Position numbers and translations under genes: made by a program
From: an uncultured Nitrososphaerales archaeon
Lineage (GTDB): Archaea; Thermoproteota; Nitrososphaeria; Nitrososphaerales; Nitrososphaeraceae
Direction: 5' to 3'
NCBI GenBank assembly: GCA_963709405.1
Contig: CAVPXM010000018.1
Location: forward strand, 1-38,335
Length of the DNA stretch: 38,335 nt
The notes under the pieces: generated by a model
Database searches by the model: none
The model's input: the letters and a program-made list of their open reading frames with translations, nothing else
Told to the model about the DNA's origin: nothing
Shown: positions 360-3,470 of the stretch, one piece after another
Numbering within the stretch: the stretch's first letter is position 1
Layout: the number at the start of each line of letters is the position of its first letter

Positions 360-720
360 ACACACATTATCTGTTAAGATCCTGCAAAAATCGTAACACC
401 AAAGCGGAATATTCAACATTTATTCAAAACCTATATTCAAAAAGGGGAGTTAAAGATGATTACCTATGATAGTAGGAAAAGCGATTGAAGACATGATTAT
501 TGTCTTTAGCATTGAGATATGAAATACAATATTGTGATCTACATTTTCATGAGATAGAATGAAACATAAAACATAAATCATAATTACGTACTTAATCCAA
601 ATCTTAAAATCTAAATTTCGACTTATAGAAAATTCGTAATATTGAATCATTAATAATAAATACCCAAAACTATAAGACCGTAACTATTTGTATCTAAGCC
701 CGTTAAGTAGTATATATCAT

Positions 721-864
721 ATGAAAAAAACTAAGAAAAAACAGGAGCAGAAAAAGAAAATAGTCATTAAATTGGAAAAGATTGTGGGAAAAAGTGGTAA
801 AGACGGTCGCATCTATCTTCCAGGAAAATGGATTGGAAAAAGGGTTAAAGTGACTTTATTATAG
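721..864 (+). CDS. DUF2080-like / AbrB-like small protein (47 aa)
   Basis: MKKTKKKQEQKKKIVIKLEKIVGKSGKDGRIYLPGKWIGKRVKVTLL*. The 'GxxGRIYLPxxWIGKRVKV' pattern is typical of archaeal DUF2080 swapped-hairpin proteins. Confidence 0.65.
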   Translation: MKKTKKKQEQKKKIVIKLEKIVGKSGKDGRIYLPGKWIGKRVKVTLL

Positions 865-1131
865 TGTTTGAATATTTATTATTTGTAGGTGATCATCGCC
901 TATCTTCTTAAGCTTGCTTATTAGTACCATTGGAAAATTCATCATGAGTATTTTTGTATTTGTCGGCACTAAATTTTGACACCAAATATTGTCCTTTTTT
1001 ATCAATTAACCAAATCCTTACAAATTTTGAATCAATTTTAGAAGTTTTCTATGATCATTTGAAGTTTATTATAAGAATGACATTTTCTCTGCTCTGTTGA
1101 AAGACATGTAAAAGTCGCCCTCTATAATCCA

Positions 1132-1263
1132 TATGGTTAGCTGACCCCTTATCATGCATGACCACATAGGTCTAGTCTGTTGAATGGGGCATATTCTCGA
1201 AGCTGCTGTCAAAGTGAGCCTCGAGCTCTGATAGATGTATGCAGCTTAGTCCAGCTATCCATA
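1132..1263 (+). ncRNA. Candidate IS110 bridge RNA with target-binding and donor-binding loops
   Basis: Outer stem TATGGTTAGCTG (1132-1143) / CAGCTATCCATA (1252-1263). Loop 1: CCCC/GGGG stem (1145-1148/1186-1189) with apical GACC-ACATA-GGTC. Loop 2: AAGCTGC/GCAGCTT stem (1200-1206/1241-1247) with apical GAGC-CTCGA-GCTC. Loop 1 unpaired segments match the element flanks. Confidence 0.75.
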
Positions 1264-1304
1264 CTGAAAAAAAGAGAAGGAGGTGAGAAAAGAGGATACC
1301 AAAT

Positions 1305-2377
1305 ATGAAAAAGAAAGGATTGCTGAACTATATAGGAGTAGATATTGGAAAACGGAATTGTGTAGTTTGTATAATGGATTCGAATGGTTCTATAATCAAA
1401 GAAACTAATTACAGTAATACGTTGGAACAAGCTGAATCCTTTGCTTCGTCCATTAAGAGGAAGCATGTTGGTAAATCCACAGCAGTCTGTGAATCTACAG
1501 GTAACCTTTGGCTAAAGACATACCAGGCATTTGAGAAACATAACATTGATGTTAAACTGGCTAATCCTTTGAAAACTAAGGCCATTGCTGAGGCAAGAAT
1601 AAAGACCGATAAACTTGATGCTAGAACACTTGCACATCTACTTAGATCAGATCTTGTAGCTGAATGTTACATTGCAGACAGAGAGACTAGAGAAGATAGG
1701 TCATTACTTAGACTAAGAACAAATTTGGTACAGGATAGAACCAGAGTAATTAATAGGGTACATTCATTACTTGATAAATATGACATGAACTTTAATTATT
1801 CCAAGATTTTTGGCATAAAGGGATTACAATGGCTAAGGGATCTAAAAGTAACTGGCAATGACCAGATTTTGCTACATGAGTAATTCAGCAGATTGAATTT
1901 CTCACTAGAGGGATCAAAAATATTGAATCGAAGATAAGGATAGACGCATCGAATAATGAATCAGTTAAAATATTGATGAGTATGACAGGAATAAATTATT
2001 TCTCTGCAATGATGATATCATCTGAAATTGGCGATATTAGCAGATTTAGTTCACCTCAAAAACTTGTATCATGGGCTGGATTATGATGTCCATCAGTACA
2101 TCAATCTGGAAACTCATTGTATATGGGAAGGATGAAAGATGGTAATAAAAAGGTAAGATGGATATTAATTGAAGCAGCTAATACTGCATCTAGAACTGAC
2201 GGTAGATTAAGGAAATTCTATCTAAGACTGGCCAAAAGACATGGGCGTCACATTGCAATAACACATGTTGCAAATAAGATATGCACTATAATGTGGCATA
2301 TGCTAACATACAAGAGACTATACAATGAAAGAAAGATTGGCCTATATGAAACAAAACTTAAGAGGATCCAACTCTAA
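1305..2377 (+). pseudogene. IS110 recombinase/transposase, disrupted
   Basis: N-terminal DEDD motifs YIGVDIGK, CESTG and KTDKLDA. C-terminal Tnp20-like SEIGDISRF...WAGL*CPSVHQSG and LIEAA. Frameshift at ~1881 and in-frame TGA at 2084-2086. Confidence 0.9.
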
Positions 2378-2459
2378 GATAATAAAGACTGGTCTAAGCA
2401 GCATTAGATAATAGTAGGATATGCTAGCCATAGAGGGACTTTTACATAGATGCATGATC

Positions 2460-3275
2460 CATTAGGAAATTTTCTAGCTGTTAGATGTTCACCGAACAGT
2501 CTTTTAATAGAAGAGATTACTGTTTCTACCATCCACCTGCGCCCATAGCTCACGCTATGCTTCCATCTTTTGATGTTTGATTGCTGTTGTTTTACTACAG
2601 ACATGTCTCTAGCTTGACAGTTAGTTGACTTGACCTTGGAATTAATTACTTCAGGTCTTTATACGAGGTTTAATGTGGTTCTTTGATAGATATCTAAAAT
2701 TGTTATTGCTGTCGCACATACCATCTTCTAATACACCCTTAGATTATTATTTTCAGAAGCATTATCCATTAACTTACTTAACATCATGCCATCATCATGT
2801 ACCTCTTCACTTGTTACCTCCAAAGATAGGATTCTTTTCTTCTTGGTGTCAACTGCTACATGTATCTTTAGATATCCTTTTCTAACATGCCATTTATGCC
2901 GCATCCATTCTCCACGATTAGCTACTTTAATACCTGTGATCTCTAAAGCAATCATAATATCATTTCCTAATTTTTCATTGATTGTGATGTCCAGTCTGTT
3001 TGTACGTCTACTAATGGTCCTATAATGCGGTATGCCTGGTACCTCTTTACTCGCATGAGCTATAACTACACCTTGTGTTTGTCTATATGGTAGATGGAAA
3101 TAAGCTCTCATGTAACCTAGGATCTTAATAAAGGAATCTGGGCAGTTGTAGAGTTCACCAACTTTCCAAGATTCATTTGAGATAATTCGTGATCCCATCC
3201 ATCAAGTACATCAAAATCCAACAGTACCTGACCCCGCCTGACTGGTGATTCATTATAGGAATGACAGTCAATCAT
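2460..3275 (-). pseudogene. IS5-family transposase remnant
   Basis: Fragments in several frames: MIDCHSYNESPVRRGQVLLDF..., FHLPYRQTQG, TGIKVANRGEWMRHKW, LKIHVAVD, YGRRWMVETVISSIKRLFGE. Multiple frameshifts; 3' end truncated next to the IS110. Confidence 0.85.
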
Positions 3276-3470
3276 GTCAAATAGTTATTATATGTAAGCT
3301 AAATACAGATTGGTCAAATAATTTTGTTGACATTGAACGTTCTGGAAGTATGATTTATACTTAAATGTTTAAATAGTTCTACAATTATATAATAATTATA
3401 TTATGATTTCGCCGTGGAAAACATTATCCAATTTTTATAGAAGACAGATTAATGAGAGGATGACGAAATA

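Follow-up and report, generated by a model that had tools for sequence, protein, structure and literature searches.

A probable donor-binding loop in the predicted bridge RNA of an archaeal IS110-family element inserted in an IS5-family terminus

Background

The window, the whole 38,335 nucleotide stretch of DNA that was analysed (contig CAVPXM010000018.1 of GenBank assembly GCA_963709405.1), comes from a soil ammonia-oxidising archaeon of the Nitrososphaeraceae. Near its left end is an IS110-family element with a non-coding region 5' of its recombinase gene. Two modules can be recognised in this region and the second of these, module 2, contains short matches to both ends of the element. Is module 2 the donor-binding loop of a bridge RNA? 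Or, are the matches coincidental and present in a leader sequence that has some other role?

A sequence-only reading of this locus had favoured the first of these answers. It had also proposed a core and a set of element ends, and a geometry reversed relative to that of IS621. Are the ends and the core located where that reading placed them? Do the strands of the loop change together with the ends of the element when it is compared with its relatives? In the present study both questions are addressed with other copies in the same genome, with related elements of the Nitrososphaeraceae and with two elements from haloarchaea.

Methods

A search of genome contigs identified 6 related loci, and a family-wide search covered 238 genomes, with matches in 33. 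From the family-wide search 20 further places were fetched before the elements were collected. The relatives compared are 33 Nitrososphaeraceae elements and two haloarchaeal elements. The 33 were gathered by the presence of two anchor sequences, one being the 3' strand of module 2 and the other the left subterminal repeat. These anchors include the motif of the 3' guide, so that its presence in the collected elements is partly by construction; the A or G state within the motif was left free. Copies without either anchor were left out of the 33-element tables, including C44, C60, C20, C80 and C61 of the window's own genome, and in the own-genome copies outside the tables module 2 was examined separately.

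Clade A is made up of 16 elements with recombinases 60–100% identical to the query and clade B of 17 elements at about 43% identity. The named relatives are from Nitrososphaeraceae MAGs, and the haloarchaeal L072 (Halanaeroarchaeum) and L073 (Natrinema) are plasmid elements with recombinases that are 36–37% identical. The same genomes also contain a third, more distant IS110-family group with 33–38% identity (G000:C54:44222-45217, L040, L041 and L042), in which a conserved structured region is present downstream of the gene, the classical IS1111 layout.

Results

Ends, core and insertion site of the element

The insertion site of the element is in an IS5-family terminal repeat (Table 1), and uninterrupted copies of this target define where it begins and ends. 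In 14 of the 15 IS5-family copies inspected, the 10-mer at 1090-1099 continues directly into the sequence that is found from 2453 onwards in the window; in the fifteenth (C79), the right end of the element studied here is present at the same point. The left junction is between 1099 and 1100 and the right junction is between 2450 and 2453, giving an element of 1351 bp excluding the core. The only bases common to both junctions and to the empty site are TG, which is not palindromic and is duplicated on the two sides of the element. This first type of terminus has 16 uninterrupted sites in the genome. The C54 copy is inserted in a second type of terminus, which has 13 uninterrupted occurrences. 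For clade B, at about 43% identity, uninterrupted targets with a TG core were recovered at other stored loci for 3 of 11 predicted patterns. The insertions are site-specific and the short core is present at each junction. In this genome only one orientation with respect to the targeted terminal repeat is found, at 8 of 8 readable left junctions and 3 of 3 readable right junctions.

Table 1. Features of the IS110-family element and its insertion site, in positions of the window
Feature	Position	Strand	Basis or remark
Left target and TG core (outer 10 bp of the IS5-family terminal inverted repeat)	1090..1099	+	14 of 15 copies; TG is 1098-1099
IS110-family element	1100..2450	+	Own-genome copies (91–96% identity); junctions
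Right donor AAAGACA, first element bases after the core	1100..1106	+	GACA (1103-1106) predicted to be read by the module 2 5' strand
Left subterminal inverted repeat	1106..1121	+	16 nt, 88% complementary to 2432-2447
Module 1, predicted target-binding loop	1145..1189	+	Blind k-mer scan; co-variation with flanks in 16 + 17 relatives
Module 1 stem	1145-1148 / 1186-1189	+	
Module 1 5' guide	1151-1158	+	Reverse complement of TG + 2453-2458
Module 1 inner hairpin	1160-1172	+	
Module 1 3' guide	1176-1182	+	Identical to 1093-1099
Module 1 AA	1183-1184	+	Identical to 1100-1101, handshake-like
Module 2, putative donor-binding loop; outer stem 1200-1206 / 1241-1247	1200..1247	+	Folds, stem co-variation
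Module 2 putative 5' donor guide TGTCAAAG	1207..1214	+	1207-1210 complementary to 1103-1106; 1211-1214 unpaired
Module 2 inner hairpin GAGC / GCTC	1216..1228	+	Helix 2 co-variation
Module 2 putative 3' donor guide ATAGATG	1231..1237	+	Same as 2446-2450 + core 2451-2452; complementary to the bottom strand
DEDD recombinase gene (a pseudogene in the window)	1305..2377	+	Lesions after 1882 and at 2083-2085
Right subterminal inverted repeat	2432..2447	+	16 nt, 88% complementary to 1106-1121
Left donor ATAGA (2446-2450) and right TG core copy (2451-2452)	2446..2452	+	Junctions, empty sites
Rest of the interrupted IS5-family element; right target from 2453	2453..3321	-	PF13737, NF033579

A different element had been drawn by the sequence-only reading, running from 1103 to 2449 with a core of AT on the right and AA on the left, which as a palindrome could allow insertion in either orientation or inversion. 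The ATAGAT and TGTC matches on which it was built are present at the positions named. However, there is almost no chance that this version is correct. The uninterrupted targets set the boundaries at 1099/1100 and 2450/2453 with TG common to both, every readable junction is in the same orientation, and the 3' guide of module 2 spans ATAGA and TG together in 26 of the 28 relatives that have a readable right junction. The circle junction that was predicted from it is displaced from the mapped ends by 1 nt on the right and by 3 nt on the left.

Some individual loci have features of their own. In two clade A elements, L023 and L054, the right core is AG rather than TG and the donor guide still has TG. 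L022 (G213:C237) has a second complete copy of the target 6 bp downstream of its right junction. At L012 (G000:C21:214028-214070) and L013 (G000:C44:8071-8100), an IS5-type terminus is followed by just the first 20–36 bases of the left end, and at L012 the IS5-family interior resumes after this remnant. These solo remnants look like the footprints of deletion or imprecise loss.

The IS5-family repeat to the right of the element (about 2453-3321) is present in more than 15 copies in the genome. It encodes transposase fragments, which match PF13737 with 46.5 bits and NF033579 with 99 bits, under the cutoff of 140 for the latter. Compared with other copies, the interrupted copy lacks about 90 bp near its terminus (at 2453-2470), and this gap is between two similar short repeats. 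On the other side of the element, window positions 600-1066 are duplicated at 98–99% identity in contigs C90 and C49, where a relative of the IS5-family element with 75% identity is inserted and has the sequence of 959-966 on both its sides. The haloarchaeal L072 (plasmid NZ_CP008875.1, 52290-54664) has, directly beside it and oppositely oriented, a gene annotated as an IS5-family transposase, an arrangement that is also seen in the window.

Copies of the element and decay of its recombinase gene

Three near-full copies of the element (C18, C54 and C44) and several partial copies are present in the genome, with 81–96% identity. The left end has 205 nt of non-coding sequence upstream of the gene and the right end has 73 nt. 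The copy in the window is a pseudogene. One base has been lost after 1882, which creates a TAA at 1881-1883, and three bases have been gained at 2083-2085, which introduces an in-frame TGA. The C54 copy is frameshifted and the C44 copy has no start codon and no right end, so that all three of the near-full copies of this genome are defective. Neither of the two window lesions is present in other soil metagenome contigs and intact versions of the element therefore probably exist. In itself the window copy is ordinary, being a dead insertion sequence that lies within a second one.

As the gene in the window is broken, the open frame of C44 was used in the domain tests. It contains both of the domains that define the IS110 family in the wide ISfinder sense, DEDD_Tnp_IS110 (PF01548, 86.9 bits) and Transposase_20 (PF02371, 80 bits). 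In addition, it scores 226 bits against NF033542, 'IS110 family RNA-guided transposase', for which the cutoff is 140. In an alignment with IS621, candidates for the catalytic D, E, D and D and for the Ser of the SG motif (the D of GQDIG, the E of ESTG, the D..D of KTDNLDA and the SG of HQSG) face the matching IS621 motifs.

Module 1 and the flanks of the element

Module 1 contains two guides separated by a hairpin (Table 1), with 25 nt from the first base of one to the first base of the other. Across the relatives, the 5' strand carries 8–9 nt that are the reverse complement of TG and the right flank, and the 3' strand carries 7 nt that are identical to the left flank and TG. How closely do these guides follow the flanks? 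Identical positions were counted with the core left out and were compared with 10,000 permutations; the elements are related to one another, so the resulting figures are not probabilities. The 5' guide of clade A is identical to the right flank at 66 of 78 positions (permutation mean 46.4) and the 3' guide of clade B is identical to the left flank at 47 of 50 (mean 31.8), values reached in 0 of the 10,000 permutations in both cases. For the 3' guide of clade A and the left flank the count is 40 of 45 (mean 33.9, reached by 113 of 10,000), and for the 5' guide of clade B and the right flank it is 47 of 56 (mean 41.9, reached by 63 of 10,000). Since its guides co-vary with the flanks, module 1 is taken to be the target loop.

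In most relatives the element begins with the same two bases that are found 3' of the target 3' guide. With the frame flipped, these bases of the loop may correspond to the position of the handshake guide of IS621.

Module 2 and the ends of the element

Several details of module 2 noted in the sequence-only reading were confirmed. The 7-bp stem of AAGCTGC (1200-1206) and GCAGCTT (1241-1247) is present in both the MFE and centroid folds. The distance between the two guides is 24 nt (1207 to 1231) and is close to that of module 1 (1151 to 1176). ATAGATG is present both at 1231-1237 and at 2446-2452, and GACA at 1103-1106 has its reverse complement, TGTC, at 1207-1210. What has changed is the interpretation of these matches: the former is the right end followed by a TG core, not by AT, and the latter begins inside an element that starts at 1100, not at 1103.

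The caution expressed over the shortness of the donor matches was justified. ATAGATG occurs 13 times in the window, compared with 11.5 times expected from shuffles, and in a blind scan of the left end there were seven 4-mer matches like that of TGTC. Folding of the entire left end is not better than that of shuffled sequences (z = -1.06). A search of 900-2700 against Rfam, with E values up to 10, returned three chance-level matches only and no bridge-RNA family. The donor matches alone are non-significant and the matter could be settled only by comparison with the copies and relatives.

Both donor guides are kept in all 6 own-genome copies that hold module 2. Where the right junction of a relative is readable, the 3' guide is identical to the right end and core, except in the two relatives that have AG at the core. 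One position of this guide is variable. It is A in both the guide and the end of 15 clade A elements, and it is G in both for 13 clade B elements. A third state, ATAGGTG, is present in both the guide and the right end of the two haloarchaeal relatives. In 32 of the 33 elements, L039 being the exception, bases one to four of the 5' guide are complementary to the donor tetramer adjoining the left subterminal repeat. The tetramer is TACA in 13 elements, GATA in 11 and GACA in 8, and two of its positions change on both sides, G/T with C/A and C/T with G/A. The sequence-only reading had named an absence of co-variation between module 2 and the element ends as an observation that would count against a donor loop, and across the relatives co-variation was found. 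It represents few independent events, with three to five haplotypes among related elements.

The structure of module 2 is also conserved. Base pairing accounts for 90.2% of the cells in an alignment of 26 distinct sequences, and changes on both sides have occurred at 5 of the 11 pairs. No shuffle out of 500 scored as highly, and controls slid along the sequence pair in at most 44.4%. For helix 2, the inner hairpin, 96.1% of cells are paired and 3 of 4 pairs have changed on both sides. In L032 (G197:C127) a (GA)n run has expanded in the loop of this hairpin, which suggests that the length of the loop is free to vary.

Could module 2 be no more than a structured leader in the mRNA of the recombinase, perhaps an element affecting translation or stability, that matches the ends by chance? 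A Shine-Dalgarno-like sequence, GGAGGTGA, is present at 1281-1288, a 7-mer and a 4-mer are not rare in this AT-rich window, and the unremarkable folding of the whole left end is in keeping with such a leader. However, three states of the 3' strand and three states of the 5' strand match the ends of their own elements, in two archaeal phyla, and the layout is the same as that of module 1, the guides of which track the flanks. We therefore consider a leader with chance matches to be very improbable.

A second alternative assigns to the RNA only half of the recognition. In this case loop 2 would base-pair with the right end, recognition of the left end would fall largely to the protein, acting through the long subterminal repeat, and the pairing of TGTC with GACA would be incidental or auxiliary. 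The 16-nt subterminal repeats that it calls for are present, and just 4 to 6 bases of the 5' guide are complementary to the donor. The four core-proximal bases of this guide are A-rich and are complementary in no clade. In addition, the lineage of the window element has 6 bases between the core and the repeat, rather than the 5 of other clades, and its 4-bp match is consequently one base out of register, a shift that appears to be tolerated. Against this are the near-universal complementarity of the tetramer, the two positions at which it changes together with the guide, and the L026 type, in which all 6 of 6 donor bases are complementary to the 5' guide. This division of recognition is unlikely, although it is less so than the mRNA leader.

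Two further sequences in module 2 were considered. GCTCTG at 1225-1230 is identical to part of the left flank, but it is invariant while the flanks vary and is either structural or a chance match. The two bases that follow the 3' donor guide were considered for a handshake role; in clade B they vary with the right flank, completely so in 12 of 13 elements, and in clade A they do not.

A model for movement of the element

The two loops share a geometry. Relative to the ORF-sense strand, the 5' strand of each loop is the complement of sequence on the right of the core and the 3' strand is identical to sequence on its left, so that the loops of the predicted non-coding RNA are complementary to both strands of the target and of the donor. 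The element may leave its site as a circle, with one TG linking 2450 to 1100. A left-end RNA would fold into two internal loops. Loop 1 (1145-1189) would base-pair on both strands with the target, which consists of the outermost IS5-family terminal-repeat bases around TG, and loop 2 would pair with the circle junction. The DEDD recombinase would then exchange strands at TG, giving one fixed orientation.

A circle or tandem junction had 0 matches in the assembly and none in contigs of two DNA and two RNA-library public runs, a result with which rare circles are compatible. From two RNA libraries, both of the same study, there are contigs that include 1090-1361 and further portions of the element together with flank sequence, and as such they are no evidence for a transcript or for its strand and ends. 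An archaeal TATA-like box may be present in the right subterminal repeat, from which transcription across the circle junction can be imagined; this box is not conserved in clade B.

Discussion

From the comparison of sequences, it is highly likely that module 2 (1200-1247) forms the loop that binds the donor in an IS110-family bridge (seek) RNA produced from the upstream non-coding end of the element. This was the main proposal of the sequence-only reading, and it is supported by both strands tracking the element ends across the relatives and by the co-variation of the stems. If so, donor and target loops of bridge RNAs are readable from sequence in ammonia-oxidising archaea and in haloarchaea. 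The relatives also provide a natural series of retargeted guides with matching insertion sites, which are the termini of IS5-family elements. For engineering, they offer compact archaeal recombinases with a TG core, with intact orthologues at G213, G212, G190, G194, G046 and G049.

How does this element relate to known systems? According to the portions of the published accounts consulted, IS621 has the opposite order of guides (PMC11208160, PMC11208158), the 5' strand of its loops pairing with the left bottom strand and the 3' strand with the right top strand (PMC11208160). The predicted geometry here is indeed flipped relative to IS621, as the sequence-only reading had stated. It is not new, since the flipped order has already been published for seekRNAs of the IS1111 type, described as having the complement of the top strand 5' of the match to the bottom strand, with the reverse in the IS110 type (Siddiquee et al., PMC11187229).

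In other respects the likeness to IS621, as described in those sources, is extensive. The predicted non-coding RNA is upstream of the recombinase, with the target loop followed by the donor loop. Each loop is an internal loop made up of outer stem, guide, inner hairpin and guide. The guides overlap a 2-nt core, one of the donor guides pairs incompletely, and a handshake-like match to the donor is made by the dinucleotide that follows the 3' target guide. The differences from IS621 are the core, which is TG rather than the CT described there, the reversed order of the guides, the 16-nt subterminal repeats, the archaeal host and a recombinase that is only distantly related (35.4 bits, E 6.8e-8, in two pieces).

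The IS1111 group is similar on other points. Its seekRNA elements, such as ISEc11, ISKpn4 and ISPa11 (as described in PMC11187229), and IS4321 and IS5075 share with the window element the long subterminal inverted repeats and the guide order. In pairwise comparison the window-type recombinase also scores higher against IS4321, in a full-length match of 62.1 bits, than against IS621. IS4321 and IS5075, like the window element, are reported to target the terminal repeats of another mobile element (PMC11208160). In the IS4321 copy that we examined as a positive control, the non-coding region contains a 9-mer complementary to the right flank; for the match to the bottom strand, no exact run of at least 6 bases was found. 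Against these likenesses, the non-coding region of the IS1111 group is described as downstream of the gene, and many IS1111 RNAs are reported to have the donor nucleotides in a multi-loop rather than in a simple internal loop (PMC11208160). The account in PMC11187229 includes a few IS1111-type exceptions with an upstream non-coding region, such as ISMtsp17. This member of the IS1111 cluster resembles the window element in its long upstream non-coding region, as compared by description only.

The arrangement thus fits neither described subgroup cleanly. Of the features of the IS621-like IS110 group, the element has the long upstream non-coding region; it does not have the guide order, and it has 16-nt arms where that group has no subterminal repeats or only 2–3 bp. 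Of those described for the IS1111 group, it has subterminal inverted repeats in the range of 7–17 bp or more and the guide order, and its long non-coding region is upstream rather than downstream of the gene. The haloarchaeal L072 and L073 likewise have an upstream RNA region, subterminal repeats and a 3' donor guide equal to their own right end and TG. They differ from the window element in the lengths of the loop strands, and in L073 no right-flank guide of at least 6 nt was found.

Among the papers listed by a full-text search on bridge RNA or IS110 in archaea, none was specific to these organisms, and the supplements of two 2024 papers may list such elements. Do the Nitrososphaeraceae and haloarchaeal elements form a distinct archaeal branch of bridge-RNA elements, with mixed IS1111 and IS621 features, a donor guide of 4–6 bases, a core unpaired on that strand and a register that can shift by one base? 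This is a tentative suggestion and we lean towards the view that they do not. Were it true, donor recognition would be divided between RNA and protein, which has not been described for IS621. What is unusual in the element is that it combines the guide order and long subterminal repeats of IS1111 with an upstream RNA region and two internal loops like those of IS621. Its kind is known, and this combination of features, together with its archaeal hosts, makes it a variant of that kind.
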